A stretch of DNA of 64,000 nucleotides. Origin: Desulfobulbaceae bacterium (GTDB taxonomy: Bacteria > Bacteroidota > Ignavibacteria > Kapaibacteriales > UBA2268). The position numbers were made by a program, and so were the translations under genes. Below, in pieces: positions 7,391-41,484 of the stretch. Position 1 is the stretch's first letter. The number at the start of each line of letters is the position of its first letter. Under the pieces are notes generated by a model. The model did not search any database and was not told the DNA's origin. It saw only the letters and a list, made by a program, of their open reading frames with translations. Where the stretch lies: positions 94,317 through 158,316 of the forward strand of contig JAGXRP010000066.1 of the NCBI GenBank assembly GCA_018335795.1, given 5' to 3'.

Positions 7391-7984
7391 ATGAAAAGAT
7401 TTCTTGCGTATTTCGCAGTCTTAGGGTTGCTCGCAGTGTTGTTTACAACAAGCGCGTCCGCTCAAGGCTTAAAGCTGGAGAGATCTGTAATCGGGAGTGG
7501 TGGCATGGTTGCTGCCCAAAATAATACCGAATACAGCTTAAACGGCGTTACAGGTCAATTTGCCATTGGTACATTGACCGACCAGAGTCCCGGCTCTCAA
7601 AATTGGGATTTGAATCAAGGCTTCTGGGTTCCCGGTCCACAAATAGTTAATAGTGTGGAAGACAATAACCCTTTAGCTAAAAACGACCTGTTCAACTACC
7701 CTAACCCGGTAAACAGGAATACTACAATTGAGTACTATCTGCCATCTGCTGCATACGTGACATTAACTGTTTACGATATGACAGGTAATCGCGTAAAAGT
7801 ACTCTTTGACGGATACCAATCAGGTGGAACCCAGACAATGGATTGGGATACCAAAGCAGACAATGGCGTCGAACTAAGTTCTGGTTCATATTTGTACGAA
7901 ATACAAGTTCGTTCATCTAATATGGCAGGAGCAGACACATTTAAGAGTTTCAGTAATAGAAACATTATGGTTATCGTAAGATAA
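7391..7984 (+). CDS. Small secreted protein with T9SS (Por) C-terminal sorting domain
   Basis: Signal peptide (MKRFLAYFAVLGLLAVLFTTSASA). The C-terminal ~80 aa match the T9SS type-A CTD pattern (NYPNPVNRNTTIEYYLPSAAYVTLTVYDMTGNRVKVLFDGYQSGG...YLYEIQV). AGGAG sits 8 nt upstream of the ATG. Confidence 0.6.
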   Translation: MKRFLAYFAVLGLLAVLFTTSASAQGLKLERSVIGSGGMVAAQNNTEYSLNGVTGQFAIGTLTDQSPGSQNWDLNQGFWVPGPQIVNSVEDNNPLAKNDLFNYPNPVNRNTTIEYYLPSAAYVTLTVYDMTGNRVKVLFDGYQSGGTQTMDWDTKADNGVELSSGSYLYEIQVRSSNMAGADTFKSFSNRNIMVIVR

Positions 7985-8047: not shown

Positions 8048-11000
8048 ATGAAGAAACTACTTCTTCTCAGTTTTGTACTATTATCATTGATTATAGCCTC
8101 AGTTGGCTCGGTAATGTCTCAATCGAGACTTATCAACTATCAAGGTAATATTTTAGACCAACAAAGCAAACCTTACGAAGGTTCTGCTCAAATGACATTC
8201 GAACTCTACGATAAAGAGTTCGGAGGCTCGCAATTATGGAGTGAAATCCAAAACGTAACAATGAATAAAGGTTATTTCAATGTTTACTTGGGTTCAAATA
8301 CTCCTTTCCCTGCTAACTTTAGCTTCAACCGCGAATTGTGGGTGCAAGTTACAGTTGGTACAAGCGCTCCATACCCGAGATCACCTCTCACTATGGTGCC
8401 TGCTGCTTTCGTTTCGGAAGTTGCTTCTTTAGCAAGATTTGCTGAAGACATTCCTGACGGTTTAGTGAATTTGAACAAATTGTCTAATGAAGTTAAGATT
8501 ATGGGCGGCGACCTTACAGGTACACTTCCAAATCCAAGACTCAGACCAGGTGCTATTTTAGAAGGCATCGAGGACGGTTCGATTACTCAAAGCAAATTGG
8601 CTCCAAATGTAACTACAAGACCTTCAGGTCCTGCAAGTGGTGACCTTACTGGTTTCTATCCAGACCCATTAATTGCTCCAGGAGCTGTTAATACTTTCAA
8701 AATTGCAGATGGTGCAGTTACTACAGAAAAAATTGCTGATTACGCAGTTACTTACAACAAATTCCAAAATGCTTTAGGTCCTGTTGGTACAATTCTCGGA
8801 TGGGATGGTACACAATGGATTGAAACTTCAGTTCCTGAATGGGAACTTGGTAAAATTGTTGAAGTATATGCCGGTGACGGTCTTTATGTTAATGAAATGA
8901 GTTCATATTATGGAAACGGTTTCTTTGATGTTCAAGTTGGTATCGCCGAATCAGGTGTAATTACTTCGAAAATTGCTGACGAAGCTGTAACTTATGGTAA
9001 ATTACAAAATGCTTACGGACCTGTTGGAACTATCCTTGGATGGAATGGTACAGAATGGATTGAAACTAACGTCCCTACTTGGGAAACTGACGCCGTAATC
9101 GGTAACGAAGTTTTAGACGCAACTCCTAACAGAGGTTTATTAAGAGCAGGTTTAGGTACTTTAGCTTCACCTTTTACATTAGGTATTGCTGATAATGGTG
9201 TTGTTAATTCGATGATTGCTAACCAAGCTGTATCATTAAATAAATTGGCCAATGGCTCAACAGGTGGTCAAGTTATGTATTGGAACTCAGTATTGGGTCA
9301 ATGGATGCTTTCTGCCGGTTCGGCTCCTATGGATAATAATGTAATCAGATGGGTTGACAATGGAACAACAAGACAACCACAATGGACAAGCGATGATGCA
9401 ATCGTTGGTAACGAAGTTGTTAATGCAACTCCGATGGGTGGTTTAGTACGTGCAGGTGCAGGTACAGAAGCATCTCCTTATACATTAGGTGTAATGCCTG
9501 GTGGAATTACTGAACCAATGTTAGCACAAGGTGCAGTTTCATTAAGCAAATTAGCTCCCGGTAATCAAATCGGTCAAATTATTTGGTGGGATGCTCTTAC
9601 CAGCCAATGGAGATATTCAACCGGTGCTGCTCCAACTCAAGACTATGTAGTTAAATGGGTTGATGCTGGTGGTTCTTTGACTCCACAATGGGCTCCAGAC
9701 GATATGACTATTCCTTATGAAAAATCAATTACTGAACATGTTCAAACATTATTTGCTCTTACTAATAATGGTAATAGCGATGTAATGTCTCTTACAACTA
9801 CAGGTACTGGCGACGGTTTGATGATTAATATGCCGCAAGATTTACCAGGTGGAGGACATGCTTTACATTTAAATGGTGCAGGTTTCCTACAACCAGCTTT
9901 AAATGTTAATGTAGAATCTGAATACGGACTTCCTAATGGTGCCGGTACTGTAAATGCAACTATTAATACTTTGGATGCTACTTCTGCAGGTTTCAAAATT
10001 AATACTGTTGTTAATGATGACGGTAACAATGCTTATGATGTAGATGGTTTGCAATCATTCTTGACTGTAAACAATGCTGTAAATAATGGATACTATACTG
10101 GTACTTGGAGTTTTGCAGAAACAGATAACGGTATTGCTACCGGTGTTTGGGGCGAAGCCGAAGGTATGAACGCTCAAAGTAACTTTGGTGTAATTGGTAG
10201 TGCTGATGATGCTGCTGTTTCTAACATCGGTGTTTTAGGTGTTGCAAATGCTCCTGTTTACCAAGATTATACTACTATGTTCCCTGCCGGATTCGGTGCA
10301 GGTGTTACTGCATTGAACGAAGGTGGCTCATTCATGGATTATGGCGTATTCGCTTTAGTTAATGGTGAAGCTACAGGTGCTTATGTTGAAGCTGAAGATG
10401 CTGTAGCCGGTGTATTCACTAATAATAGTGATATGTCAGAAACAGTATTAGCTTTCAACCAAGGAAACGGCGATGTTGTTGTCGGTATTGCTAACGAAGG
10501 TTCAGCTTTTGTTGGTTTTAACGAAAGTGCTATGGGAACTGCAGTTATTGAAAACATTGGAACAGGTTCAGCTATTGAAACAGCTTCTATGGGTACTGAT
10601 TTCCCAACTGTATTGGCAGAAAATCTTAATGATGGTCCTGCTGCATGGTTCGTTGGTATGAATCCACAAGCAGATGGCTTCGCGAATAATAATTCAGTAG
10701 CTGCTGTAGTAAATATGAATAATGGTCGTGCTTTGTATGTAGAAGGTGGAGCAGCTAACGATGAAAATGGTGGCAATCCTTACTTCCAAGATCCAGCTAA
10801 CAATGACGACGCTTCTTTAATCGTTGTTAACACAGCTTATCAAGGTGGCGCTCCTTGGGGTACTGCAATCAAAACTTACGGTGACATTTGGGCTAACTCA
10901 ACTATCGGTGCAAGCCAATTAGTAGCTCTTGACGCCCTTGTTATCGGCGACCCATTAGGTTTGAACACTACTTTGTATCCTCCAATGTATCCAGGCGATC

Positions 11001-13717
11001 CTTTGGTTATTAACTCAGATGTTGAAATTCAAGGTGACTTGTATGTAGATGACATTTGGGCTGACGAAGTAAATGCAAACGTTCTTAACGCTGCTTTAGG
11101 CGTATTTGACAATTTGCAAGTTAATATGAATGCTAACGTTGATGGTAACACTACTCTGAACACTTTAGCTACTTCAGGTAACGCTACTGTTGGCGGTACT
11201 TTCGGTGTTACAGGCGTTACAACATTAAGTAACAATTTAATTGTTAACGGTACTTCGACATTGAATGGTGCAGCTCAAGTTAATAATACATTGAATGTAA
11301 CAGGTAATGCTGTACTCAATTCCGCTCCCGGCATGCAAAACACTACAGTTGACAACTTGAACGCTTTGGGCGCTCTAGATGCTGTTGGTGCTATCACAGG
11401 TCAAAGCACTTTGGGTATTGCAGGTAATGTTACTCTTAATACTGCTCCTGGTATGCAAACTACTACTGTTGACAACTTGATTGGTAATGGTACTGCTACA
11501 ATTGCCGGAGCAACTATAATTAACAATACTTTAAATGTAACCGGTCTTTCAACATTATCGAACACTCAAGTTAATGGAACATTAGGTGTAACCGGAGCTA
11601 CTACTTTAGGTAGTACTTTAACTGTTGCAGGTTTGACTCAAATTAATAACAATTTGAACGTAACCGGTAATGCAAATGTTAATGGTAATGGTATTTTCGG
11701 TGGTAACATTAGTGCAGTAAATGGCATCTTCAGTGGTAATATTTCTGCTGTTAATGCTACTTTAAGCGGTACTTTGACTGTAAACGGTGCATACACTCGT
11801 TTGTCAAACACTACTGCTTTACAAGTACAAGGTGGCGACGCCGGAACTCTTGGTGAGCTTTTAGTTAGCCGCGGTGCCGGTTTATCACCTGAATGGACTA
11901 CTTCTATTCCTTATCTTGAAGTTGTTAACCTTGATGTATTAAACAATTTAAGTGTTGGTAATGATACTGATATGATGGGCGACCTTACAGTTGCCGGTGA
12001 TGTATTCTTAAACACTAATGGTCCTGGCTTCTCTACATTCGTACAAGAACTCGTAGTTGCTCAAGATGCGGTTGTCGGTAACGATCTAGCTGTTGGTAAC
12101 GATGGTGTATTCGGTAATGACCTTTTGGTTGTTGGTGATGGAACTGTTGTTGGTGATGCTGATGTATTTGGCGATTTAGAAGTTATGACTAACACTTCAT
12201 TACTTGGTACTTTAGATGTAACCGGTGTTTCTACTTTTGCAAGCGAAGTTGAATTCAACGGAGCTAATGTTGCATTCTCACCGGGTACTGAAGTACTTGC
12301 TTGGGATCCTACATTAATGACAGCAAACTTCGAAGGCGATGCCGGCGATTTATTCGTTAGTCGTGGTGCAGGTTTATCACCTGAATGGACTGACGAACTT
12401 CCTGACCTTACAGTTTCAGGTCTTTTGACTACTATGAACTTGCACGTTACTAATGATGCTCAAATTGATAATGACTTAACTGTAGGTAATGACATCGTTG
12501 TTACAGCCGGTGATGTTGATATCCAAAATGGTAGCTTAAACGTTGGTTTAGATGTAACTGTTGGTAATGACTTAGCAGTTATCAATGATGGTATCTTCGG
12601 AAACGATGTTATCATTCTTGGTGGTGACCTTGACGTAATTGCAGGCGATGCAAATGTTGCTGGTGATGTAAACGCTACAAACGTTAACACAACTAACAAT
12701 GTTAATGCCGGTAATGATGTAAACGCCACTAATAATGTAAACGGTACTAATTTGAATGCATCTAACAATGTTAATGCAACAAACAATGTAAACGCTACAA
12801 ATGTTAATGCAACTAACAATGTTACTGCTCAAAACAACTTAGTATCAGTTAATAATACAGTTGTTGGAAATAACTTGCTTGTTACTAACAATGCTACTAT
12901 CAGCGGAAACTCACATGTATTGGGTAATTCATTAGTAAACGGTACATTAACTGTTGACCAAAATTCATTGTTCAAACAAAGCGTTACTATTAATCAAAAT
13001 TTAACGATTGACCAAAATCTTACAGTTACAGGTTCTTCAACATTCGGTAATACAGTCAGTATTAATAATGCTGATTTGAATATCACTAATGGTGGTATAA
13101 ATGTAATCGGAGATGATGTATTCTTTGGTAACCCTGTAGGATTTAACAATCCTTCAGCATTCGAAGACCTCTACGTACGTGGAAATATCGAAGCTGACGG
13201 TATGATTTTCGGTGCTATCAACCCAGGTTTGACTCCGGGTTCGGTAACATTCGGGGGAGCAGTAGGTCAAATCGCTGAAGATAATGCTAACTTGTTCTTC
13301 AATGACGCAACAAACAGATTGGGTATTGGAACTAATACACCTGCTCAAACTCTTGATGTAAACGGTACAATGAACGTAAGTGGTGCTTCAACTCTTGCTG
13401 CTGCTACTTTGAGCGGTAACTTGACTGCAAATCGCAGAATGATTCACGGTTATACAACTGCAGCTAATTTAGCAGCACTTGTTGCCGCGATAAATAACGG
13501 TACAACTGTTATTCAATACCAAACTGCTAACGCTCTCGAAGCTAACCTCGTAGGTGCTTTGCCTGCAGGAACAACCGGACAAATTATCTATATAATTAAC
13601 AATACTTCAATTGGTTCGATTAGTGTTGGCACTCCTGTCAACCCAAGAACAATTGTTCAAAGCCAAATGGTTGCCTTAATTTACAATGGTACAAATTGGA
13701 TTCCAATGGCTAACTAA
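8048..13717 (+). CDS. Giant secreted fibrous adhesin-like protein (1889 aa) with tail-fibre-like repeats and a C-terminal domain shared with the next gene
   Basis: Signal peptide. Repeated modules with the motif I(T/A)xxKIADxAVTxxKL follow, each trailed by a Trp-rich block (GPVGTILGW(D/N)GT(Q/E)WIET(S/N)VP(E/T)WE). Next comes a long run of 'NxTGxxxLNxxxTxxNL' fibre repeats and an Asn-rich hexapeptide repeat (NVNATN). There is an internal duplication (VSRGAGLSPEWT occurs twice). The C-terminal ~70 aa are conserved with the 13873-17580 protein. Confidence 0.7.
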   Translation: MKKLLLLSFVLLSLIIASVGSVMSQSRLINYQGNILDQQSKPYEGSAQMTFELYDKEFGGSQLWSEIQNVTMNKGYFNVYLGSNTPFPANFSFNRELWVQVTVGTSAPYPRSPLTMVPAAFVSEVASLARFAEDIPDGLVNLNKLSNEVKIMGGDLTGTLPNPRLRPGAILEGIEDGSITQSKLAPNVTTRPSGPASGDLTGFYPDPLIAPGAVNTFKIADGAVTTEKIADYAVTYNKFQNALGPVGTILGWDGTQWIETSVPEWELGKIVEVYAGDGLYVNEMSSYYGNGFFDVQVGIAESGVITSKIADEAVTYGKLQNAYGPVGTILGWNGTEWIETNVPTWETDAVIGNEVLDATPNRGLLRAGLGTLASPFTLGIADNGVVNSMIANQAVSLNKLANGSTGGQVMYWNSVLGQWMLSAGSAPMDNNVIRWVDNGTTRQPQWTSDDAIVGNEVVNATPMGGLVRAGAGTEASPYTLGVMPGGITEPMLAQGAVSLSKLAPGNQIGQIIWWDALTSQWRYSTGAAPTQDYVVKWVDAGGSLTPQWAPDDMTIPYEKSITEHVQTLFALTNNGNSDVMSLTTTGTGDGLMINMPQDLPGGGHALHLNGAGFLQPALNVNVESEYGLPNGAGTVNATINTLDATSAGFKINTVVNDDGNNAYDVDGLQSFLTVNNAVNNGYYTGTWSFAETDNGIATGVWGEAEGMNAQSNFGVIGSADDAAVSNIGVLGVANAPVYQDYTTMFPAGFGAGVTALNEGGSFMDYGVFALVNGEATGAYVEAEDAVAGVFTNNSDMSETVLAFNQGNGDVVVGIANEGSAFVGFNESAMGTAVIENIGTGSAIETASMGTDFPTVLAENLNDGPAAWFVGMNPQADGFANNNSVAAVVNMNNGRALYVEGGAANDENGGNPYFQDPANNDDASLIVVNTAYQGGAPWGTAIKTYGDIWANSTIGASQLVALDALVIGDPLGLNTTLYPPMYPGDPLVINSDVEIQGDLYVDDIWADEVNANVLNAALGVFDNLQVNMNANVDGNTTLNTLATSGNATVGGTFGVTGVTTLSNNLIVNGTSTLNGAAQVNNTLNVTGNAVLNSAPGMQNTTVDNLNALGALDAVGAITGQSTLGIAGNVTLNTAPGMQTTTVDNLIGNGTATIAGATIINNTLNVTGLSTLSNTQVNGTLGVTGATTLGSTLTVAGLTQINNNLNVTGNANVNGNGIFGGNISAVNGIFSGNISAVNATLSGTLTVNGAYTRLSNTTALQVQGGDAGTLGELLVSRGAGLSPEWTTSIPYLEVVNLDVLNNLSVGNDTDMMGDLTVAGDVFLNTNGPGFSTFVQELVVAQDAVVGNDLAVGNDGVFGNDLLVVGDGTVVGDADVFGDLEVMTNTSLLGTLDVTGVSTFASEVEFNGANVAFSPGTEVLAWDPTLMTANFEGDAGDLFVSRGAGLSPEWTDELPDLTVSGLLTTMNLHVTNDAQIDNDLTVGNDIVVTAGDVDIQNGSLNVGLDVTVGNDLAVINDGIFGNDVIILGGDLDVIAGDANVAGDVNATNVNTTNNVNAGNDVNATNNVNGTNLNASNNVNATNNVNATNVNATNNVTAQNNLVSVNNTVVGNNLLVTNNATISGNSHVLGNSLVNGTLTVDQNSLFKQSVTINQNLTIDQNLTVTGSSTFGNTVSINNADLNITNGGINVIGDDVFFGNPVGFNNPSAFEDLYVRGNIEADGMIFGAINPGLTPGSVTFGGAVGQIAEDNANLFFNDATNRLGIGTNTPAQTLDVNGTMNVSGASTLAAATLSGNLTANRRMIHGYTTAANLAALVAAINNGTTVIQYQTANALEANLVGALPAGTTGQIIYIINNTSIGSISVGTPVNPRTIVQSQMVALIYNGTNWIPMAN
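12664..12840 (+). repeat. In-frame Asn-rich 18-nt (hexapeptide NVNATN-like) tandem repeat within the 8048-13717 CDS
   Basis: Translation reads NATNVNTTNNVNAGNDVNATNNVNGTNLNASNNVNATNNVNATNVNATNNVTAQNN. The nucleotide sequence repeats aatgt(t/a)aa(t/c)gc(a/c)ac(t/a)aac units. Confidence 0.6.
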
Positions 13718-13731
13718 TAGTTAACAATAAT

Positions 13732-13760
13732 AGCATAGTCTGATATTATCAGACTATGCT
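13732..13760 (+). terminator. Hairpin terminator downstream of the 1889-aa gene
   Basis: Perfect inverted repeat agcatagtctgata-tt-atcagactatgct, 15 nt after the stop codon. Confidence 0.55.
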
Positions 13761-13872
13761 ATGATTTTATAGAAATTTAGCTTTTAAAGAAAGTATTTTT
13801 ATGGTATAGTATTTGAGATAAGTTAGCTTAAATTGAAAAATAATTGTTTAATATAATAGAGGTGCAAACCTT

Positions 13873-16800
13873 ATGAAAAAATTTCATATTCTTATTTTTG
13901 GTGTAATCTTCTTCATGGCAACAAGCTTGACACAAGCTTTGCCTGAGATATTTTACACCAATTTTGCGAGAACGACCGGTGGCGGATTAGTCCTAAACTC
14001 GAACGTTGACGTAAGAATAACCATTTTCGACGGCGCTACCGAGGTTTATAAAGAAACCCATGCAGGTATTACTACAGATGAATTTGGTTTATTTACAGTT
14101 CCCGTTGGTGGCGGGGCTCCGGTTATTCCTTTTAATAACGCTATGTACGATGCTTTGATTGCTTCAAACAATCTAAATATCTACGCAGAAAGTGATGCCG
14201 GTGACGGTTACAGATTTATTGAATTACGTTCACTTTTGAATACAGCATTAAGAAATGCTGAAGTTCAAGGAATAGTGACTTTACAAAGTGCTTACGATGC
14301 TGGTAACGAAATCGAAGTAGTTGTTGGATTCCCTGTTGACCTTACCGGTACAGGCTTAATCCAATCGGCAGCTTCAGTTGCTGACATCAATACAAATGGT
14401 CCTTCAACATTGACTACAAAACAATATGTTGACGACGCTATTGCTGCAATTTTCCCATTGCCACATATTACTGAAGGCGATGCTATTGAAATTTTACCCG
14501 ATGGTTATTATGATGGTCAAACTACTCAATCTATTGGTGTAGCTGACAACACTATTTCTAACGTAAAAATCCACGATAATACGGAATTCCAAGAAGTCGA
14601 AGCTTTAGGCGACGGTTTTGCAGATGGAACTGATGTTGGTTCTTGGTCAGTTACAAACTCTAACAGAGTATTAAATTTTGCCGGTGTTGGTTTGACTAAT
14701 GTAACTCGCGACGGTAATACAATTTTAATTGACGGTTCTGATAACTGGGGTTTGCAAGTTGTCGAATCAGATGCAACTCTGATTGGTGATGGTACTATTG
14801 GTAATGAACTTGGCGTTAATCAAGATTTCCCTTTCGTGTGGACTTCTTACCACCAATTTATTCCTGATACTGACGAACCTGCAATTGCTCTTGACGGAAG
14901 TAGTTCATTAACTAATCCTACTTTGATTGCCGTCGGTAATGCAGACCCAGCCGTTGTTGACTTCATGTTCGACGGTGAAATGGTCCTTTTGGGCACTGAT
15001 GATACTGATGCTAATGCTGAATTGACTGTTTACGGTTCAACTCAAATGTTAGGTCAAAAAAATGACGCTCAACCTGAACTTTATGTAGAAGGTGACGTTG
15101 CTGTTACCGGTTCTGTTGATGCTGAACGCGGATTCTTTACTTTTGATAATACAGGTAACGCAGGTGCATTTACTATTATGGCTAATGCCACCGGTGATAC
15201 ACCTTCGAGCCCTACTTTCCCAACTGTAGCTCAAGCTGTTACCGCTATAGCAACTTATTCAGGAGTTGCTCCAAATATGACTGATATGCTTGTTGCAAAT
15301 AATGGCTTAACAAACGCCGGAGCAGGGATATTAGCTGTCGGTACTTACGGTGGTTCACGTTCTGCTAACTTGGTTGCAAATGTCGGTACGGTTGGTCATG
15401 CTTATAATTCATTGAGTCCTTATAATTCTCATGGTATTGTAGGTATGGTTACTACTACTTTATCCGGTGCAACTGAAATTGGAACTGCATTAGGTTTAGG
15501 TATTAACTCCGGTATTACAGGTATCAATTTAGGTGTTGCTGCAAATGATTATGCAGGTTACTTTATTGGTAATGTTAACGTTGATGGCGATTTTAATGGT
15601 ACTGGTAATGCAGTATTTGAAATGGATGTAAATGTTCAAGGTAATGCAGATGTTGATGGTGATTTGAATGCTGATGGTGCAACTACTTTAGGTGGCACTT
15701 TAGATGTAGCTGACAACGCAGTATTTGCAATGGACGTAAATGTTCAAGGTAATGCAGATGTTGATGGTGATTTAAATGCTGATGGTGCAACTACTTTAGG
15801 TGGCACTTTAGATGTAGCTGACAACGCTGTATTTGCAATGGACGTAAATGTTCAAGGTAATGCTGATGTTGATGGCGATTTAAATGCTGATGGTGCAACT
15901 ACTTTAGGTGGCACTTTAGATGTAGCTGACAACGCAGTATTTGCTATGGACGTAAATGTTCAAGGTAATGCTGATGTTGACGGTGATTTGAATGCTGATG
16001 GTGCAACTACTTTAGGTGGCACTTTAGATGTAGCTGATAACGCAGATTTTGCTATGGATGTACAAATTGATGGCATTTTGAATGTTGACGGTACTTCTAA
16101 TCTTAATGGCGATGTAAACCTTGGTGATGTAAGTACAGACAATGTTGTATTCAATGCAATGGTTAATAGTGCTGTAGTTCCATCTATGGATAATACATAT
16201 TCATTAGGTACTGATGCTAACCGTTGGGCTGATGTTTATGTTGGTCCTGCCAGCTTGAATATTGGTACTTCGGGTAACAATGCCGTAATTAGCTATGATT
16301 TAGGCAACAATTGGGTTGATATTAATACTGACCTCAATGTACAAGGTACAGTTTATGGTACAACTTTGAATGGTGCATATACTGAAGGTTCTGTTCTTTT
16401 CGGAGCTGCCGATGGTAGCATTACTGAAAATAATGGAGAACTTTTCTGGGATGATGCAAGTTCATACTTAGGTATTGGTACAGACGCTCCAGCTTCTAAA
16501 TTGCACTTAGTCGCACCTTTAGATGTAGCTTTAATTATCGAAGGTACTCAAGGCGACAGCAATCCTGACGTTTTGATTGACGGTGAAGTATTGATTTTGG
16601 GAAGTGTTAATGGTGATGCTGAATTTTGGATGAATGGTGGCGACGGTATGCTACTTGATGGTGGCGCAAGTTTGCACATTACTAACGGCGACGGTATCCT
16701 TTTAGACGCTGGTGCCAGTATGATTATTGATGATTTGGGAACTTTAAACGTTGATGGCGATGGTACATTTAACAATGACCTTTATGTTTCGAATAATTTG

Positions 16801-17580
16801 TTCGTTACTAATGACGGTGATTTTGGTAATGATGTTATCGTTGGAAATGATTTGAGTGTTACAGGTCTTGCTACTTTTGAAAATGTAATGGTAAATGAAT
16901 TTGCTGAATCAGCAAAAACAGGCGCTGAAATTGCAGCTGAAGCAAGTGATGATTTGTTTGTAACTAAAGATTACGTTCAAGGTGGTCACTTCGGTAGTTT
17001 CAATACTTTAATTGCATTCAATCCTGCTTCAGGACCTGCGATTACTGCTACTTCATCCGATGCGACTGCTCCTACTGTTACAATCGAAAATACTCACCCT
17101 GATGGTACTGCTTTGCAAGTTCAATCGAACAACGCTTCGACTACTGCATTCGAAATTCCAACAGGTAACATGAGTATTGGTAATGGTCAGTTAATCGTTT
17201 CGGCAAATGCCGGTATCACTTCTACTCCTCCCGAAGGTCAAGGTCCTGCTCTTATTGTAGGTAACTTTGGTACTTCAGGCGAAAATGGTGGTGCTATATT
17301 TGTCACTGAAGGTCATACTGCTTTATCATTTAATTCTTTTGATGAAACAACCACTGACTATTCTGAAGTAACTTCAACTGTTATTGATATTAATGCAGGT
17401 GCTGCTATGGTAATCACTGATTTACCGGGAACAAATGTTTCTGCTGATATGCCAGGTACATTACTTTATATCATTAACTCAGGTACATTTACAATTACTT
17501 TACCTGATGCAAGTACAATTCCTGCAGGTACTGTTGCTACTTTTGTCAACAACGGGTCTGCTTGGTTCAGAATTAACTAA
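13873..17580 (+). CDS. Giant secreted fibrous adhesin-like protein (1235 aa) with perfect 36-aa tandem repeats and the shared C-terminal domain
   Basis: Signal peptide. The N-terminal domain resembles that of the preceding protein. A block of near-identical 36-aa repeats (NAVFAMDVNVQGNADVDGDLNADGATTLGGTLDVAD) follows, then Gly/Asp/Asn-rich fibre repeats. The C-terminus (LLYIINSGTFTITLP...TVATFVNNGSAWFRIN) aligns with the C-terminus of the 8048-13717 protein (IIYIINNTSIGSISVG...MVALIYNGTNWIPMAN). Confidence 0.7.
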   Translation: MKKFHILIFGVIFFMATSLTQALPEIFYTNFARTTGGGLVLNSNVDVRITIFDGATEVYKETHAGITTDEFGLFTVPVGGGAPVIPFNNAMYDALIASNNLNIYAESDAGDGYRFIELRSLLNTALRNAEVQGIVTLQSAYDAGNEIEVVVGFPVDLTGTGLIQSAASVADINTNGPSTLTTKQYVDDAIAAIFPLPHITEGDAIEILPDGYYDGQTTQSIGVADNTISNVKIHDNTEFQEVEALGDGFADGTDVGSWSVTNSNRVLNFAGVGLTNVTRDGNTILIDGSDNWGLQVVESDATLIGDGTIGNELGVNQDFPFVWTSYHQFIPDTDEPAIALDGSSSLTNPTLIAVGNADPAVVDFMFDGEMVLLGTDDTDANAELTVYGSTQMLGQKNDAQPELYVEGDVAVTGSVDAERGFFTFDNTGNAGAFTIMANATGDTPSSPTFPTVAQAVTAIATYSGVAPNMTDMLVANNGLTNAGAGILAVGTYGGSRSANLVANVGTVGHAYNSLSPYNSHGIVGMVTTTLSGATEIGTALGLGINSGITGINLGVAANDYAGYFIGNVNVDGDFNGTGNAVFEMDVNVQGNADVDGDLNADGATTLGGTLDVADNAVFAMDVNVQGNADVDGDLNADGATTLGGTLDVADNAVFAMDVNVQGNADVDGDLNADGATTLGGTLDVADNAVFAMDVNVQGNADVDGDLNADGATTLGGTLDVADNADFAMDVQIDGILNVDGTSNLNGDVNLGDVSTDNVVFNAMVNSAVVPSMDNTYSLGTDANRWADVYVGPASLNIGTSGNNAVISYDLGNNWVDINTDLNVQGTVYGTTLNGAYTEGSVLFGAADGSITENNGELFWDDASSYLGIGTDAPASKLHLVAPLDVALIIEGTQGDSNPDVLIDGEVLILGSVNGDAEFWMNGGDGMLLDGGASLHITNGDGILLDAGASMIIDDLGTLNVDGDGTFNNDLYVSNNLFVTNDGDFGNDVIVGNDLSVTGLATFENVMVNEFAESAKTGAEIAAEASDDLFVTKDYVQGGHFGSFNTLIAFNPASGPAITATSSDATAPTVTIENTHPDGTALQVQSNNASTTAFEIPTGNMSIGNGQLIVSANAGITSTPPEGQGPALIVGNFGTSGENGGAIFVTEGHTALSFNSFDETTTDYSEVTSTVIDINAGAAMVITDLPGTNVSADMPGTLLYIINSGTFTITLPDASTIPAGTVATFVNNGSAWFRIN
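15610..16075 (+). repeat. Tandem 108-nt (36-codon) repeat, about 4.3 copies, nearly identical at nucleotide level, inside the 13873-17580 CDS
   Basis: Units start at about 15610, 15718, 15826 and 15934, with a partial unit at 16042. Copies differ only at a few synonymous or near-synonymous positions. Confidence 0.8.
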
Positions 17581-17880: not shown

Positions 17881-20800
17881 ATGAAAAAATTATCAACACT
17901 TCTGACCCTTTTGGTGTGCTTTATCTTGTTTAGCACATCCGCTTGGTCAGCTACTTGGATAGTGGATAACGCCGGTGGTGGCGATTTCACTACTATTCAA
18001 GCCGCCGTCAATGCCGCCTCCGGTAATGACATTATCTATGTAAATGGTTCTGGAACCAATTACACTGAAAATGTTAATATACCCGGTGGCAAAAACCAAT
18101 TATCAATTATTGGTGTCAACGACGGGTCAGGTTTTCCGGTGCTGGATGGCTCCGGGGTTACAAACCCTAAAGTTGCATTCAGAGTTAGCTCTGATAATGT
18201 AACTATTCAAAACATGGTGATTCAAAACTACAATTACGGAGGTGCAACTAACGTTGACTTCGGTAGTGCCCAACGCGGTGTAGGTATCGAATCTCTAATC
18301 GCTTCTTCCGGACACAATTTCTCAGATAATACAATTACTAATTGTAACTGGGGTATCTATGTTCGCGAAGGTAATAGTATTAGTGTTAAAAATAACACTA
18401 TTAATAATACTGTTGCTACCGCTCACGGTAGTGGCTATCCAAATACCGGTGGTACCGGTATAGCTTTTGTTAGTGCAGGTGTTTCTTTGGATGAAAATGA
18501 AATCCAAAATAACTCTGTTTCGACATCTGCTTTTTATGGCGTATTTTTTGGTCGCAGACTTGATGGCGGTACTCCTGTTAATGGTGACAACGTCATTATT
18601 AGCAATAACACAATTTCAAATGCCGGTATTGGAAACAATGGTTTCGCTATCTATCTTAACAATATCAAGCCTGATGACGCATTAAGAATCGAAGACAACA
18701 CTTTGAATAATAATAATGCAGGTTTAAGATTAGCCCAAAATACTACGGCAAATACTGACATTAATGTTTTCAACAACGAATTCAACAATACTGTTTCTTC
18801 AATTGAAGTTCAAACAGCTGCTTTATTTAGCGGTGGAACTTTATATGACATCATGTTCAATAATGGCAACATTTTTGACGAAGGTACTCCGGCTTCTACT
18901 CCGGGTGCAGTTGCTGCCTTGGACGTTTTGGATACTGAAGTTGTAAGTAATGGTACTAACCGTTTTATACGTAATAGATTTGCTAATGCAATTGTTGACG
19001 GCGAAGGCTATTTGTCGGCTGCTGCTGCAAGTACTAACGTTAAAGTTTATGCAATGGCAGGCTTCTATCCTTCTGAAGTAGCTCTTGTATCAAGCAACCC
19101 TGCAAACGGGCAAAACATGTTGATTACAGGTGAAGTTGATGGTAGTGGCAATAATCTTGCTAAAGCGCAAGGTGATGCTATCGGCTCAACAATATTTACT
19201 ATTAACCCACTTAGCAATTTGACCGTAACATTCGAAAATATTGATGTTGAATTGAATTTGAATGTCACTCAATATGGTATTTATACTGGGTCTTCAAATA
19301 CTACTGTTAATTTATGTAATTTTACTACTGCAAATGTTATATCAGCTACCGGTATAGCAGCTATTGCAACTGGTACTGCAACGTCAAATTTCAGTTTCGA
19401 CCAAAACACTGTTAATGGTTTCTTTGCAACCGGTTTAATTATTGACCAAAATAATGTTACTATTAGTTGTAATGATTTTAATTTCGTTACAACGACTAAT
19501 GTCATTATAGATGTTACTGACTGGAATGCTGATGTTGCTAATATTACAGGTGGCGAAATTATCAATAACACTTTCACATCAGTTTTTGGTTCAACTGCTA
19601 CTAATATCAGAGTTATCTACCCAACTGTTGGTTCAGGTGGATTAGAAATTGGTACTAATGGTAATGGTAACTTCTTTATGAATGGTGACTTTGCTATAGA
19701 TTTAACTCTTATGGCTAATGGTCAAGTTACAATTGGATATAATAATTTCCAAGAAGCTGATTATACTGATTGGATTGATAATTCGGCTGCTTTCGATGTT
19801 AATGCAGGTTGGAATTACTGGGAAATTCTTGGTATCAATCCAAATGCAGAAATCAGTGCTATGATTACCGGCGCCGGTGCAGCTAATGTATTCTTCTTAC
19901 CTATCTATTCAAGTGGTGTAGATACAGACTTAGCTGGATGCGGTTTCCAAGCTGATTTGACTTCAATATGGACTCCAGTCTATACTGCTGTTAATGTTGG
20001 TGACCCATTGACTGATCCTGATGCATTGTTCTTCTGGACTATCGAAGACGCTTTGGCTGACCCTAATACAGGTATCGGTTCCGGCGGTGCTCCTGAAAGA
20101 TATGCCGTTTATTTGTATAATAATGGCACTTTAACAGAAAACAATCCATTGAGTGTTGCTTATCCTATGTGGATTGGTGGTGCTCCGGCTCAGGCTTCAA
20201 ATCTTAATGTAGATCCACTTCCAGGTTTCTGGACTGTTGAAACTGCAAATGATATGGCTCCATTGTTTTCAGTTATCGAACCGGGAACAGCTTTAAATCC
20301 TGTTGCTTTCGATAGCTTTACTTTGTTCCCATCAGACGTAACTCTAAACTCAGCTAATAATGCAATTTTAGTTGATATCGTTGGTGCTCCAAATATAATG
20401 TCATATTTAAATGTGACGAATTGTATATTTGATGTTGCTGATGCAAATCAATCAAATGCTATATTTGTTGATAATACTAATACAGTATCAATTGATAACT
20501 TCTTCATCTATAATAATACATTCATGAAGAATGATGCCGGGTATGCTCTAAGAGTTGAAACACCAATCACATCAACTGATGTTCAATTCCTCAATAATAA
20601 TATATTATGGAATATTGCCGGTGTTACTCCCGGATTTTCAATTTATTTTGAAGACGGTGTTGATGGTTTGACCGTTCTTGGTAATAATTTTGAAGCAGGT
20701 ATCTTATTAGAATCAGTTCTAAATGATATTGATAACGTTGAAATCGGTTCAACCGGTACTCATCTTCTTGGATTTTTGCAAGGTAATACTTTCTTCAATC

Positions 20801-23800
20801 CAAATGTTTCCGGTTTAGATTACGGTATTTTTATCGAATCACCTATTGGCGGTGGCGATGTAGCTGCTACCGATTTCAGAATTGTACAAAATTCATTTCA
20901 AGATATTACTGAAGCTATCTACTTTGATGTAGAGCCTACTGAAATTACTTTAGCTAATATCTTTATCAACGAAAACGACTTTGAAAATATTGGTGCCTCA
21001 TCAATCGTTCTTGATGGTATTCCACCTTATGCAGGACAAATTGATGCAAGATTCAACTTCTGGGGTACAGATGATGGTCCAATAGCTTTAATGACAGCTC
21101 CGACTTGGCATGACAATTCGGTTCCTCCTATCCAAATAATTGCTAACTCATACAACTATGATGTGAATAATGCTGCATCTCCGAGTGGTGTACTTTACGA
21201 AGCTGATTATATCAACTTTGTTTATTGGTGGCAAAACTTCAATGCAAACATGGGACCCGGTTCACATACAGGTGACCAATTTGCTCCATTTGTAAATTCA
21301 AACGGTGATGTATTTGCTTCTTTGATTGTTGCTCTTGATAATACAACAACCGGTAACGATATCTTTATCACTCCCGGTGAATTCGTAGAATCAAACACAA
21401 TTCAACAACCAGCGAATCCTTATACAGTAAGCATTTATGGTGATGTTAATGGTGGAACTTATTTCAGACCTGATGGTTTGAATGCAAACGGCACTTATGC
21501 TGCTGAATATATGTTCTACTTTAGCGGTGATGTTACTATTTCATTATATCACTTACATTTAGAAGATTATCGTCCAAGTCCTACTAATCAAGATGAAGAT
21601 GTCTTTGCAGGTGTTTTCGTCAATGGTGATGACCTTGTAAATCCGTCAATCGTTAGATTCTATAACGGTTCAATAAGCGGTATAAACTTCCTTACAAACG
21701 GTGTTGGTTTCTTTGCAGAAGGCAATGCAAATGTAAGAGTTGAAAATAGTGATTTGACTGAAAATGAATTTGCAGGTATCTGGATAGAAGAAGATGCTTT
21801 AAACGGACCTCCAACCGGTTCATTTATCAACAACATGATTGATGGCGATGGTGTTTCTAATTATGGTATTGGTTCAGCTGGCGAAACTTATGTAACTATC
21901 CAATACAATACTATTTTTGATAATACAGGCGCAAGTGCAGGTATTTTCTCTTCAGGTATTGGTGCAGGAAGCTTAACAATCGAATATAACCAAATCTTTG
22001 ATAACACTTACGGTATCGAACTTGGTGTCACTGGTGCAGGCGATAATTATTCAGCTGCTATTATCCGCAACAACGCTATCTATGATAACGTCACTGCTGG
22101 TTTGATTTACTTCCCGGACGTTTCTTCTGTTGTAACAGCAGAAAATAACTTCTGGGGTAATGACGCAGGTCCTGCTTCTTTAGGAGATTTGGGTCTTGGC
22201 GATTCACAACGTAACGGTTTCTTTGATTTAGGTATTACTCAAGGCAACGCAGTTGTTGATGGTAATCTTGATTCAGAAATTGATTACTTACCTTACAGAT
22301 TAACTTCAGGCTTTACACCTAACATTTCGATGATTGCAGGTGCAAGATTTGCTCCAATCGTAAGAACAAATTCTGCAAACATTCCATTAGGATTCTATGC
22401 TAACATTATGTCAGCTGATGCTGATGTAACGTCAGGTTCAGATGAAGGCATTTATGTATATGGTGGTAATTATGCAGACTTGTTCTATGCTTCAAAGGAT
22501 GAAGTAAGATTTATTGGTAAAAATAGAATGGCTCCTTATGCAGCATCGTGGTTGATTAACCCACAAGGTTCAGCTACTAATGCATGGGGTTCAGCAAAAG
22601 GTGCTGATGTAAACGGACCATTATTTATCACACATAATGTACCGGGCTCACCTTACAATGCTGAGATAGACGCACTTACAGAAATTTCAATTCAAGGTTT
22701 CACTTTTGACGCTACAGATAAAACTGCTACAGTTGATGGTCCTTATACCGGTAATTACAATGACGGTATGTACTTATCAGGTGCAGCTGACGAAGTTACT
22801 GTAAATCAAAATACATTCCTTGCAGATGATGATGACAATTCAATTAATTTCGTTGTCGGTACAGCTACAAACTGGACTATTACTAATAACTTGTTTGATG
22901 CAAGTGCTTCAACTCCGGCTAACGACCCGATTGCTGTTAATGTAACAAATGGTCTATTTGGTGGTGCTCATTCAGACATATTGATTGATAATAACGATAT
23001 AATCGAGGGCGCAGTAAATATTTACGCAGGCAACAATGATGTTTCAGGCATTATGGTAAGTTTCAATGAATTTACTGATTCCAAAGCCGGTGTTATTGCT
23101 TCTGCTGTCGGTGGATTTGGTTCACAATTATCAAATATCTACATTTCCAATAACGTATTCTACGACTATCCAACTATTGACCAATTTGCTTTCGGTATTC
23201 TTGCCGGAACTCCGGACAATGCAGTTGCAACTGATTGGACAACAGACATCATGTTTACTGAAAACTTTGTCGGCGTTGACCCACTTGATGTCGCTAATAC
23301 AATGCCTGCAGTTGGTTTCCAAAACGCTACTCCACTTCTTACTTACACTTCAGCTATTACAGCTACTTGTAACTGGTGGGGTTCAGTAAATGGACCAACA
23401 TTTGCTCTAAACCCGGGTGGCGATGGCGCTACTGTAAGTGAAAGAGCTTATATGGCTCCTTGGTTATCAGGTTCTGCTAACAATGCAACATTTGGATTCG
23501 ATCCAATGGATGCTTGCGATGCCGGTATCAGAGTTTGGGTTAACAATACAGGTGACCCATTAGACCAATTCATAATCTTCCCGGGCTTACAAATGGCTGT
23601 GGATGACCCGAACGTAGTAAATCAAACATATGAATTTATTTTTGTTCATGACGATTATACAACAGGTGGAACTCCCGGCTTCTTAAACGAATCAACTACA
23701 ATTGCTAACTGGAATATTAATGCAACTTGGTTCTTATCAGCTGAAACAGCTGCTAATGAAATCGGTTTGGCAGGTAATTTAGAATTTGCCGGAACAGGTT

Positions 23801-26800
23801 TTGCTTATAACTTATTGATGCTTTCTCCAATGAGAGTCCAAGGTGACTTGATACTTGATAATATTGGTTGCCAAGGTTGGTTACAACTGTTAAATAGTGA
23901 CTTTACAGTTGAAGGTCACATAACAGAAGGTTACTTCCTTACCGTAGCAGTTAGTTGCCAAGTAAATACAACAGGAATGGGTTATTTAGTTAAAGAAAAT
24001 GTCGTAACAGGCGGTATTAATAACTTCCCGATAATTGGTCCAGGCGCAACAACAGGCACACCAGCCGAATTCGTTGTTAACAGCGGTGGCTTTACTTTAG
24101 CTCAAAACAATATCTTAAAAGTAAGAGCTAACGCAATCGACCCTGTAACTGCAAAAGGTATGGGACAAAACGGATTTGACATCAACAACTTATGGTCAGT
24201 TGACTTTACAAACAATGCTGCAATGAATCCTAACTTCGCAATGCAATTACGTAATTATGATAATTCGATGTATGATGTAAATTTTGATAATGTAACTTCA
24301 TATGGTGCATTCTGGGATATGGCTCCTGGAGCAACTCAATGGGCTACTAAGAAATCAAATTCCTCATGGAATGGTTCAGACGGTATTCAAGTAACAAATC
24401 TTAACCTTGAATCCGGATTAACTGATTGGGCTATTTTCTCAGGTCCTACTTCATTTGCATTGTCGAATGAACCAAACCAAGCTCGTAACATCATGTGGTA
24501 CAGTACTACTGACAGAAAGATTGACTTCAAATGGACTAGAAATGACGCAAACGCGCAATACTACGCAATTCTTGCTCGCGAAGGTTCAATGATTGCTGCT
24601 CCTTCTACATTTACTCCAACTCCGATTTCAGTTTATGTACCTTATACTTGTCCAGTATTGCCAAATGGTCCTTGGACTTGTAGCCCGGGTCACTTGAACT
24701 TCGCTGACGGTAATGTAAATAGCGTTGACCCGAATTTTAATTGGGCTAATTCATTATTCCATGGCGACCAAGCTCCTACCGATGTAAGAGTTGTTAAGAT
24801 TGGAAAATACGGTCCGGGTGCTATATTTGATGCAAGTGTTGATAACTTAGCACAAGGTACATTCTACGAATTCTTCGTTGCTAACTTTAACTATGGTGAT
24901 GGTTCAACAGCTGTTGCTGATATGGAATCAGGAGCTGATGGTATGGCTAATTACAACCTTAATCCAAATACTTTGAATCCAAGAACTCGTAAAACTATGC
25001 CAGCTGTTTATATGACTATAGACTTTAATGGCGGATTCGCAACTAACGTTGCAAACCAACCAAATAGAGTTTGGGCTTACTCAGTTATCGGTTCTTACAA
25101 TCCTATGGACATTTACAACAATATCGTAAAAAATAATGGTGTACTTGGTTCATATGTAGTTGAAAACCAATATAATGGTGATGATTTGTTAGGCGGTCAT
25201 GTTGCTGAAGTTTGTGATGATGGTTCTATGAGTTGGACAGCCAACAACATCAGATTGCACTTCAAGAACTATGGTCGTTATACAGGTTCCGGTTGGATTA
25301 TCAAATATTCAGAAAACAATGACACTAAAACATTTACTACTCCTTCAATTGCTGCATTTACTGATAGAACAAGAACTGCTAACACAGACTACTATTTAGT
25401 ATCAGCTTATGATGGTGACGGTAAAGTTGCTTACAAATATGACAATATGCAAAAAATCAGATTCCAAGTTGACGAACCAACAGATGTAACTTTGACAGAA
25501 ACACCTGTTGTAATGCCGACTTGCGAAGGTAACAATGTAACTTTAGTTTCTGCTCCAAATAGCTATCCAAATGCTACTTTTGACAGATGGGAATTTGATA
25601 ATGGTGGTGGTTGGACAACTTTCACTACATCATTACCGGGTGGCTCAACTGTTACAGGTGGTAGTACAATTACTATTACATTGGATTATGGCGATAACGG
25701 AACTGACATTCGCGCGGTTTACATTAGTAATTCAATTTGCGACTTAGGTCTCGAATTTAATTCTAATGCAATCGAACTTGAAATTTACGACGCTACTTTG
25801 ACCGGTTTGCAACCTTACACAACTGCTCCTGCTGTTGTTGATAATGAAGCTCCCGGTGTATGCGAAGGCGCTAACGTAACATTCCAAGCTGATGCTGGCG
25901 GTCCCTTCACATCACCAAACAGCTTAACCTTTATTGGTTGGGAATATTTTGATGGTGTATGGAATCCATTAGCAGACGGTGCTTTAGTCGGTGCTACTAT
26001 TTCCGGTTCAGCTACTCAAACAATGACAATTACCGGCGCTACTTTGGCTATGAACGGATATGATTTCCGCGCTGTATGGCAAAATGGTGACTGTAACGTT
26101 CTTGAAACTATTGAAACTAACCTTGAAGTAATCGAACAACCTGTTATATCACAACAACCTGTTGTTACTCCTGTTACAGTATGTGCAGGAACTCCAATAG
26201 ACGTTGATGCGATTGCTACTCCTTTCACAAGTGTACAATGGCAAATTAGCAACGACAACTCAACTTGGGTCGACCTTGTTGACGGTTTGGCATTTGCTTA
26301 CATGGGTGGAAATGCTGTAATTGCAGGTGCAACTACACAAAACCTCACAATTACTCCGGCTGATAATACATGGGATGCATTCTACGTTCAAGTCGTTTAT
26401 ACAAACGAAGGCGCAGAAGGCGACGAATGTATTACAACTTCAAGCTCAGTACAACTTGACATCTTGTTGGCTCCAATCGTAACTCCATTTACTTCTCCTG
26501 TAACAGTTTGCGAAGGTTCAAATAATAGCTACACAGCTGTTGTTACTAATCCTTACAATACTCCTGTAACTTGGGAATACTTTGATGGTACTTGGAATTC
26601 ACTCGGTGCAGGTGTTGTTGATGGTACAACTGTATCATTCACAGGTGCAGGAAACGAAACACTTAATTTGAATAACATTGACTTAATGTGGGATGGCTAT
26701 CAAGTTAGAGTAACAGCTACTAATGGCACTTGCTCAGATACTGAAGGCTTCACAATTAATGTTGATGAATTACCTGTTGTAGTAACTAATCCGATCGATG

Positions 26801-39975: not shown

Positions 39976-41061
39976 TTGAGAATGGAAAGAAAAATAATCC
40001 ATATAGACATGGATGCCTTTTTTGTGGCAGTAGAGCAACGCGACAACCCAAGTTTGCGTGGCAAACCCGTTGTGGTTGGCAGTCCTCACAAAAGAGGAGT
40101 TATTTCAGCTGCAAGCTACGAAGCTCGCAAATATGGAATATTTTCTGCTATGCCTTCTATCGTGGCTGCACGGAAATGCAAAGATTTGATTTTCGTTCCC
40201 GGGCGATTCCATGCTTATAAAGAAGCCTCAGAGCAAATCATGCAAGTATTTTATGAATATACAGACCAAGTTGAGCCACTTTCGCTCGACGAAGCATACC
40301 TTGATGTCACCACGAACAAAATGGACAATCCATCGGCTACTAATATTGCGAAGGAAATCAAAATCAGAATAAAAGAATCTACCGAACTTACTGCATCTGC
40401 CGGTGTGTCTTTCAATAAATTTTTGGCTAAAGTAGGGTCTGATTTCAACAAACCCGACGGATTGTGCGTAATTACTCCTGCAGCATCTACTAAATTCATA
40501 GAAGCATTGAAAATCGAAAAATTCCCGGGTGTTGGCAAAGTAAATGCCCGAAAATTACATGATTTAGGTATTTCTACCGGAAAAGATTTGAAAAAACTTA
40601 CTCAAGAATCATTAATAAATCAATTTGGCAAATTCGGCGAATATCTCTTCAACATGTCTCATGGGATTGACAATCGCGAAGTCATTGCCGAGCGAATTCG
40701 AAAATCTATCGGTGCCGAACGAACTTTCGGGGAAGACATTCTCGATGAAGCTAAATTACTCGAATCATTGAATCGCATTGCAGAAATCTTGGACAAAAGA
40801 ATAAAAAAATCGAATTCCTCCGGCAAAACTTTGACACTCAAAATCAAGTATTTCGATTTCGAGATTACGACTCGTTCCAAGACAGTTTTCTATCCAATTT
40901 CGGAAATTAACGAAGTTCTCGCACTTGCCCAAGAACTATTTTATACACCCAAAGCCCCGTTCAAAAGAGTGCGTTTGCTTGGATTATCATTATCAAATTT
41001 GGACAATAATGAAATCAATATTGGCGACCAACTTAAATTGAATTTTCATGAGCTATTATGA
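39976..41061 (+). CDS. dinB: DNA polymerase IV (Y-family translesion polymerase)
   Basis: IHIDMDAFFVAVEQRDNPSLRGKPVVVG ... LSLDEAYLDVT ... ASAGVSFNKFLAKVGSDFNKPDG, the canonical DinB motifs. 361 aa. Confidence 0.9.
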   Translation: MRMERKIIHIDMDAFFVAVEQRDNPSLRGKPVVVGSPHKRGVISAASYEARKYGIFSAMPSIVAARKCKDLIFVPGRFHAYKEASEQIMQVFYEYTDQVEPLSLDEAYLDVTTNKMDNPSATNIAKEIKIRIKESTELTASAGVSFNKFLAKVGSDFNKPDGLCVITPAASTKFIEALKIEKFPGVGKVNARKLHDLGISTGKDLKKLTQESLINQFGKFGEYLFNMSHGIDNREVIAERIRKSIGAERTFGEDILDEAKLLESLNRIAEILDKRIKKSNSSGKTLTLKIKYFDFEITTRSKTVFYPISEINEVLALAQELFYTPKAPFKRVRLLGLSLSNLDNNEINIGDQLKLNFHELL

Positions 41062-41358: not shown

Positions 41359-41397
41359 GGTCGTGGGTTTAGGGTTAAGGGTCGAAACATTTAACGA

Positions 41398-41484
41398 TAT
41401 TCTTTGCGTTCTCTGCGTTTAATCGTATTCCTTTGCGTCCTCTGCGGTAAATTGTATTTCTTTGCGTTTTCTGTGGTAAAATTG
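41398..41484. repeat. Three contiguous imperfect direct repeats (28-30 nt) in the intergenic region upstream of the acyl-CoA dehydrogenase gene
   Basis: tattctttgcgttctctgcgtttaatcg / tattcctttgcgtcctctgcggtaaattg / tatttctttgcgttttctgtggtaaaattg. Consensus TATTYCTTTGCGTYYTCTGYGKTAAATTG. Confidence 0.75.

Follow-up and report, generated by a model that had tools for sequence, protein, structure and literature searches.

A tandem array of 108-nt units was analysed in a 64-kb stretch (64,000 nt, hereafter the window) of contig JAGXRP010000066.1 from assembly GCA_018335795.1. The array is enclosed in a forward-strand gene (13873-17580) encoding a 1235-aa modular fibre-like protein which is predicted to be secreted and which exactly matches NCBI MBS4001233.1, annotated as a hypothetical protein in the protein collection. 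We regard the array as an ordinary shaft repeat of variable length in a surface protein, comparable to the shafts of BadA, SasG and alpha C. It probably represents a register-preserving length module in a beta-helical shaft, changing its copy number at an evolutionary rate. Four features were directly observed: the anatomy of the array, the pattern of selection on its units, the conservation of the array across strains and the swapping of modules among orthologues.

Anatomy of the 108-nt array

Analysis of the complete window with Tandem Repeats Finder (TRF) gave one strong array at 15610-16062 (period 108, 4.2 copies, 95% matches, 0 indels) with a score of 801, against 150 for the runner-up. 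In codon register, four complete in-frame units of 36 codons (108 nt each) span 15607-16038. The original prediction of 108-nt tandem repeats within the 1235-aa gene was thus confirmed by both approaches, and its figure of 4.3 copies with an end at 16075 is explained by the first ~24-37 nt of a diverged fifth unit having been counted in.

The peptide of units 1-4 is in each case NAVF[E/A]MDVNVQGNADVDGDLNADGATTLGGTLDVAD. The sole non-synonymous difference (E583) lies in unit 1 (15607-15714, aa 579-614), as do the private sites T3, A14 and T21. The junction of unit 1 with unit 2 (15715-15822, aa 615-650) reads C108, then AACGCAGTATTTGCA. Private synonymous sites are T6 and C54 in unit 3 (15823-15930, aa 651-686) and T15, C51 and T108 in unit 4 (15931-16038, aa 687-722), all units being encoded on the forward strand. 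Any two of the four units differ at 3-7 sites (93.5-97.2% identity), so that the units may well be called near-identical, while the earlier wording of an almost perfect identity was slightly generous.

On its 3' side the array is followed on the same strand by unit 5 (16039-16146, aa 723-758; NADFAMDVQIDGILNVDGTSNLNGDVNLGDVSTDNV), an old diverged copy in which 47-52 of the 108 nt differ from units 1-4. The first half of unit 5 corresponds to a segment found in every orthologue in an alignment of the seven closest proteins (alignment A1). On the 5' side, a degenerate partial proto-unit (GNVNVDGDFNGTG; 15568-15606, forward strand) belonging to repeat families D2 and D3 lies in register with the units at 74-100% identity.

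As had been anticipated, the gain or loss of a 36-codon unit leaves the reading frame intact, and the 4-unit and 1-unit alleles described below are both full-length open reading frames (ORFs). No competing ORF longer than 64 aa was detected on the other frames or strands, and no Rfam match was obtained for positions 7000-30000 of the window.

Age of the units and selection

Units 1-4 differ at 10 columns: nine third-position changes, all synonymous, and one non-synonymous change (E/A, unit 1). With a neutral expectation of 23% synonymous changes, at least nine out of ten has a probability of P=1.6e-5; the same count is compatible with the gene-wide dN/dS of ~0.12 (P=0.13). Pairwise synonymous divergence (dS) between units amounts to 0.13-0.29. 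For the whole gene, the dS between the window and the nearest distinct strain is 0.009 (8 synonymous differences over 873 sites), and the dS to sister-species orthologues, which are devoid of the array, is 0.39-0.44. The divergence between units is therefore 14-30 times that between strains and reaches a third to three quarters of that between sister species.

Private substitutions are found in every unit, which indicates that the array was not homogenised by frequent turnover. Altogether, these sequence comparisons argue for an old, selectively preserved array with a long residence of each copy rather than for a fresh expansion. The recent expansion proposed in the original prediction is not supported by these values.

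Copy number in other assemblies

An independent assembly, the NCBI metagenome-assembled genome (MAG) GCA_014879555.1, harbours four units which are identical to those of the window nucleotide for nucleotide, including all 10 variant sites. Further evidence was obtained from Logan contigs, assemblies which we take to be built with k=31. Two contigs of SRR6212587 are identical to the window, one of them stopping at 15657 and another beginning at 16008. In the 4-unit allele, 31-mers are non-unique from 15628 to 16007; the 1-unit allele has none. The contigs thus break exactly where a k=31 graph must branch, which points to a multi-copy allele. A literature search for SRR6212587 gave no match. In a contig of SRR26349693 (plus two similar places), 63 of 8493 sites (0.74%) deviate from the window, and this contig also ends at 15657. 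Because this position is a uniqueness limit of the 4-unit allele, the second strain would likewise carry a multi-copy array.

One single unit was found in contig k141_36725 of ENA ERZ27300255, a name which presumably indicates a MEGAHIT assembly. The corresponding product has 1127 aa compared with 1235 aa. Global alignment with MAFFT showed that this contig is identical to the window over 23.4 kb, the sole difference being one gap of 324 nt (3 units). An initial count of 14 single-nucleotide polymorphisms (SNPs), which had arisen from ends of BLAST high-scoring segment pairs inside the repeat, was rejected, since the global alignment shows zero. Up to position 107 the single unit has the sequence of unit 1, and at position 108 it has the T of unit 4. 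A 56-nt tract is identical in units 1 and 4 (15658-15713, forward strand, with its partner at 15982-16037), and a crossover or template switch within this tract yields exactly the 1-unit allele. A true deletion and an assembler collapse would give the same sequence. For bacterial surface proteins, short-read assemblies are documented to report too few repeats, and genuine variation within a colony, as in SasG, is on record as well (PMC6868369). For the single-unit contig, assembly collapse is considered somewhat likelier than a real allele.

Taken together, the assemblies contain 4, 4 and 1 units, and at least two units are implied in two further read sets. In the comparison of copy number across strains that had been suggested initially, the four units of the second MAG speak for stability, and the one unit of the short-read contig may be a collapse. 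No protein with two or three units was present in a collection of 15 billion proteins, and no Logan assembly yielded the 1127-aa product. JGI (Joint Genome Institute) metagenomes gave nothing, either by protein patterns or by the exact 47-nt invariant block of the units. GTDB representative genomes contained only an orthologue of 80% identity without the repeat.

Modularity of the shaft in orthologues

Alignment A1 shows two conserved parts, aa 1-582 and aa 820-1235, on either side of a middle in which modules are swapped. This central cassette zone (15619-16329, forward strand; aa 583-819) differs between orthologues by whole modules, namely the 36-aa units, a module of ~130 aa (GHEFLL...) and a tail-fibre-like module of ~85 aa (module C). 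The window protein and P0001 combine four units with module C, P0002 one unit with module C, and P0003 the ~130-aa module with module C. P0005 and P0006 have the ~130-aa module alone. P0004, identical on 17 contigs from many samples, has none of these modules. The modules end in D-L-x-V-[DEQ]-G-T.

More distant members of the family, as revealed by a diagonal scan for internal repeats, display internal duplications of their own with 74-87% identity, such as the 56-aa tandem units in P0008, P0009 and P0011. With the shaft and junction segment as query, a word-indexed search for homologues yielded a single weak match. From the differences in the cassette zone, the internal duplications and an upstream 1889-aa neighbour sharing shaft and junction, a change in shaft length by whole modules is concluded to be the normal evolutionary mode of this family. 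The shaft of BadA from Bartonella likewise evolves by modules (PMC8859334).

In the Kapabacteria MAG M9949, the orthologue is split into an N-terminal protein of 94 aa (P0016) and one of 1004 aa (P0006), which suggests a frameshift or a sequencing error near codon ~80.

Predicted fold of the repeat unit

Written in rows of six residues, a unit reads NAVFAM, DVNVQG, NADVDG, DLNADG, ATTLGG and TLDVAD. It thus consists of six x-phi-x-phi-x-G hexapeptides, or two half-units of 18 residues. When the repeat zone (aa 560-760) was scanned alone, the Pfam family Bactofilin (PF04519) was matched with E=3.5e-9 and 37.2 bits, above the gathering cut-off of 27.9; this match is not listed in the scan of the full-length protein. 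An exhaustive HMMER search with the 1-unit orthologue retrieved 1409 cluster representatives at E<=1e-3, most of them aligned only to aa ~560-790. Among ten sampled distant shaft relatives, seven showed Bactofilin matches and two showed End_tail_spike matches.

BacA, the structural prototype, forms a beta-helix in which ~103 residues make up six windings, each with three strands and with glycine at the corners (PMC4672760). The match to the hidden Markov model (HMM) of Bactofilin, the hexapeptide and 18-residue periodicity and the geometry of BacA together suggest a bactofilin-like beta-helix to which each 36-residue unit contributes two windings. The usual rise of a beta-helix is ~0.48 nm per winding, and at two windings per unit the length of one unit would be ~1 nm and that of the four units ~3.8 nm of shaft. 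Structure prediction with AlphaFold2 gave low-confidence models both for aa 500-900 as a single sequence (predicted local distance difference test, pLDDT, of 41.7) and for aa 36-1235 with a 13-sequence alignment (pLDDT of 37.0); regular strands with a 17/19-residue spacing are seen in these models.

The likeness to Bactofilin (PF04519; BacA) therefore consists of an HMM score above the gathering threshold and of an 18-residue winding with three short strands and glycine corners. Bactofilins, however, are small, cytoplasmic and polymer-forming proteins (cytoskeletal filaments), whereas the protein considered here has 1235 aa and a predicted signal peptide, and its putative beta-helix is one segment within a modular shaft of extracellular type.

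Proposed origin of the array and alternative explanations

The array is proposed to have originated from an ancestral 36-residue segment, represented by unit 5, which would have been duplicated and then amplified to four copies. Amplification would have taken place after the split from the sister species and long before the present strains diverged. Afterwards, purifying selection would have held the peptide while the synonymous sites drifted. Since one unit would comprise two windings, a whole unit could be gained or lost without upsetting the register of the helix. Such events may proceed by unequal recombination or by RecA-independent template switching in the identical tracts of 47-56 nt; RecA-independent deletion and expansion is known to occur between direct repeats of less than 200 bp (PMC7145654). 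The data point to copy change on an evolutionary time scale and not to a high-frequency switch. What is inferred in this explanation is the fold as a beta-helix, its dimensions in nanometres, the location at the surface and the way in which units are deleted.

Several observations weigh against the proposal of a slowly evolving length module. Sites 42 and 60 display all four haplotypes among the units, and unit positions 61-107 are invariant, variation being confined to positions 1-60 and 108 (P=0.003 over all sites, P=0.008 for third positions only). These two features are taken to show that some recombination or conversion has occurred inside the array. Between the window and the second MAG, the 209 SNPs over 22 kb are patchy, with zero SNPs in the 7 kb around the array (9001-16000), and the MAG is not a deeply independent lineage. 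This pattern weakened a candidate argument that placed the array before a 1% strain split. If real, the single-unit contig represents a very recent event (0 SNPs) and favours a faster process. Full-length public alleles of the lineage number only three (4, 4 and 1 units), and the stability is derived from these few observations. The beta-helix assignment rests on one HMM match and on periodicity, the three-dimensional models being of low confidence, and fibres of such type may be trimeric, which would alter the length estimate. Finally, Pfam and NCBIfam scans, including one of the C-terminal 195 aa alone at E<=1, detected neither a C-terminal sorting domain of the type IX secretion system (T9SS; PF18962/TIGR04183 type) nor another anchor in the 1235-aa protein.

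The first alternative is that the array acts as a hypermutable contingency-type length switch, in which high-frequency slippage or recombination would provide bet-hedging of fibre length. It draws on the single-unit contig, where 23.4 kb of identity are interrupted by a clean 324-nt loss with a chimeric junction of units 1 and 4. The unit of this contig (108 nt) is also shorter than the final k-mer of 141, so that k-mers spanning both flanks would have had to exist. The four haplotypes at sites 42/60, which reflect past exchange within the array, and the hypervariable in-frame repeat numbers documented in SasG (PMC6868369) and BadA (PMC8859334) point in the same direction. On the other hand, each unit has private synonymous changes with a dS of 0.13-0.29, while arrays with fast turnover homogenise. 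The identical 4-unit array is found in the independent MAG, four Logan contigs behave as a multi-copy allele and the 1127-aa product is encountered in no Logan assembly, whereas a short-read metagenome assembly, a kind prone to under-counting of repeats (PMC6868369), is the sole source of the 1-unit allele. Contrary to short homogeneous units, the units are 108 nt long and differ at 3-7 sites, and both alleles are full-length ORFs, so that a change in copy number cannot switch expression on or off. The weight of this alternative thus rests almost wholly on one contig. A contingency-type locus, as had been proposed at first, is accordingly not demonstrated, and we consider the hypermutable switch rather unlikely.

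A related idea, suggested by the zero SNPs over 23 kb, that 1-unit and 4-unit alleles coexist in one clonal population and that fibre length is tuned in two-winding steps of ~1 nm, is a tentative possibility. If true, length would be tuned by recombination in the 47-56-nt identity tracts, and the synonymous differences between units would act as a brake setting the switching rate. It would also reveal an undescribed class of surface appendages in Bacteroidota, with swappable phage-fibre-like shafts encoded beside T9SS cargo.

A second alternative places the array in the tail-fibre gene of a phage or prophage, with repeat variation tuning the host range, and draws on the shaft and on the region 3' of the array. 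Module C (aa ~741-825) bears the motif PSMDNTYSLGTDANRW (16180-16227, forward strand; aa 770-785), which is similar to phage tail-fibre and endosialidase-stalk sequences. Like module C, the junction TEGSVLFGA...LFWDD...LGIGT resembles phage tail-fibre and baseplate proteins and IMG/VR contigs, and the motif gives a weak match to Pfam End_tail_spike (E=7.9e-4, 20 bits, under the cut-off of 25). By tblastn, a putative tail fiber of Roseobacter phage CRP-603 (8e-5) and a marine virus (2e-10) were matched. Identities with phage tail-fibre, baseplate and viral-contig proteins are 31-60% over segments of ~50-225 residues within aa ~531-895. The IMG/VR loci match aa 531-895 alone and never include the N- and C-terminal domains. 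The likeness to phage tail-fibre shaft modules, with the DNxYxLGxxxxRW motif and the LFWD...LGIGT junction, is thus central, and differs from a phage tail fibre in the chromosomal non-phage setting and in terminal domains that are absent from viral contigs. Moreover, the neighbours are housekeeping and surface genes together with T9SS cargo, no phage structural, integrase or lysis genes were found among the flanking genes, GC content is uniform (0.34-0.42), the product bears a predicted signal peptide, a four-gene cluster is syntenic across species, and PHROGs gave only weak matches to families of unknown function. The gene product may well be called fibre-like, as in the original prediction, and a phage fibre is very improbable for this chromosomal bacterial protein.

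Lastly, it is hardly credible that the 4-unit array is an over-expansion artefact of a gene with one unit, as the single-unit contig might propose, since the independent MAG has the identical four units, each told apart by its own SNPs, the Logan contigs of two strains break exactly at the 31-mer limits of the 4-unit allele, breaks not expected from a genome with one unit, and assemblers collapse repeats but do not invent distinct copies (PMC6868369). Both the phage-gene and the artefact explanation are effectively excluded.

Comparison with known repeat systems

BadA, a trimeric autotransporter adhesin, shares with the present protein conserved N- and C-terminal parts and a variable repetitive shaft, in which modules are multiplied, deleted and recombined between strains, altering fibre length, and its repeats have been missed by short-read and Sanger assemblies (PMC8859334). 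It differs in that no Pfam match to YadA-like anchor, head, neck or stalk domains was obtained for the 1235-aa protein, that only four units are present, that the shaft is predicted as a hexapeptide/bactofilin-like beta-helix and not a coiled coil, and that the host is an uncultured environmental member of the Bacteroidota.

Among Gram-positive and enterobacterial proteins, SasG B repeats and the invasin-like repeats of Yersinia ruckeri also occur in secreted surface proteins with long in-frame units near-identical in DNA; in those systems, copy number varies between strains or within colonies and is under-counted in short-read genomes (PMC6868369). Proteins with a variable number of tandem repeats at the cell surface have in common with the present one near-identical in-frame units in a secreted product (signal peptide recognised by eye), conserved ends and a variable middle. 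The alpha C and Rib proteins of group B Streptococcus are surface proteins of the same kind with variable in-frame repeats. The units of the SasG/alpha C type are usually identical in DNA (concerted evolution), whereas private synonymous changes are seen in each unit here, and they form Ig-like or G5-E domains where beta-helix windings are predicted here.

Classical contingency loci share a repeat-mediated and potentially reversible change in surface structure. Their units of 1-9 nt change the frame or the spacing of a promoter at a high rate, in contrast to the 108-nt unit considered here, which is always in frame and shows signs of long-term stability. Measured against these systems, the 1235-aa protein lacks defining features of a contingency locus, of a bactofilin in the strict sense, of a phage tail fibre, of T9SS cargo and of a trimeric autotransporter.

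In-frame repeat variation in surface-protein shafts is already well known, and the array opens no new question. Its practical value is modest, as a strain or assembly-quality marker for a Kapabacteria-type lineage. It offers a worked example of a short-read assembler giving a shorter protein (1127 vs 1235 aa) from an otherwise same genome, and would illustrate how a beta-helical shaft can grow by two windings at a time while keeping its register. It further points to a family of secreted fibre-like proteins, so far uncharacterised, that have shaft modules in common with phage tail fibres.

Gene product and genomic neighbourhood

At the N-terminus of the 1235-aa protein, a predicted Sec signal peptide (MKKFHILIFGVIFFMATSLTQA; 13873-13938, forward strand) was read by eye from the sequence, with a basic N-terminus, a hydrophobic core and T-Q-A ahead of LPEI, traits which are kept in the orthologues. 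The protein would hence be secreted, and it is probably exposed at the surface. No Pfam, NCBIfam or PDB relatives were found for its N- and C-terminal domains. NCBIfam gave no match for the protein, the PDB sequence search yielded chance-level matches only (E>0.3), and separate Pfam scans of N-terminal, middle and C-terminal pieces revealed nothing beyond the shaft.

The array gene is the third in a cluster of four genes for secreted proteins of 197, 1889, 1235 and 3869 aa, all on the forward strand. The cluster is syntenic in each related contig recovered, across species (Kapabacteria/Ignavibacteriae-type MAGs). Its first gene (7391-7984) encodes the 197-aa protein with a T9SS C-terminal sorting domain (Pfam PF18962, PF13860). 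The second (8048-13717) encodes a 1889-aa secreted paralogue with hexapeptide shaft segments, which matches the shaft and junction of the 1235-aa protein by BLASTP (1e-10) and shows weak LpxD hexapeptide matches. Downstream, a secreted protein of 3869 aa (17881-29490) contains right-handed beta-helix and fn3 domains according to Pfam; its C-terminus has by eye the look of a T9SS sorting domain, a Por_Secre_tail match not being listed. A protein of 751 aa farther downstream also bears a T9SS C-terminal sorting domain. Other neighbours comprise an RsmB-type methyltransferase, an RNase T-like exonuclease, a HAD hydrolase, a TonB-dependent receptor, a Na+/H+ exchanger with TrkA domains, a 3-hydroxyacyl-CoA dehydrogenase and several proteins with T9SS sorting domains.

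A perfect palindrome with a 15-bp stem (13730-13762) is located 13 nt past the stop codon of the 1889-aa gene and resembles a terminator when read on either strand, a sign that the fibre-like genes may be transcribed separately. The C-termini of the 1235-aa (17440-17577) and 1889-aa (13570-13714) proteins share the motif ..[LI][LI]YIIN.......G......NG..W....N, matched by no Pfam family. In the otherwise poor AlphaFold2 model, the 10-residue blocks of highest confidence (means mostly 72-82) lie within the final ~90 residues of the 1235-aa protein. The two proteins may share an uncharacterised C-terminal domain.

The entry MBS4001233.1 is labelled 'Desulfobulbaceae bacterium'. All of its homologues originate from Candidatus Kapabacteria/Ignavibacteriae MAGs, and the T9SS sorting domains of the neighbouring proteins are typical of Bacteroidota, under which NCBI taxonomy places Kapaibacteriota. 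From the affiliation of these relatives and the sorting domains of the neighbours, the label is probably a binning error.

Other variation in the window

The SNPs between the window and the second MAG are clustered in the 3869-aa gene, with 102 in 20001-21000 and 38 in 24001-25000, and a 9-nt indel is located in the same gene at 20389-20397. These clusters in the beta-helix/fn3 gene look like patches imported by recombination. In the 1889-aa gene (12690-12828), a further and weaker array, likewise in frame and with periods of 18 nt and 51 nt, encodes runs of the hexapeptide NVNATN; its length is the same in the single-unit contig and in the second MAG. An intergenic 29-nt tandem repeat of ~3 copies with 81-82% match was found at 41390-41488, between the ORFs 39976-41061 and 41640-42797.

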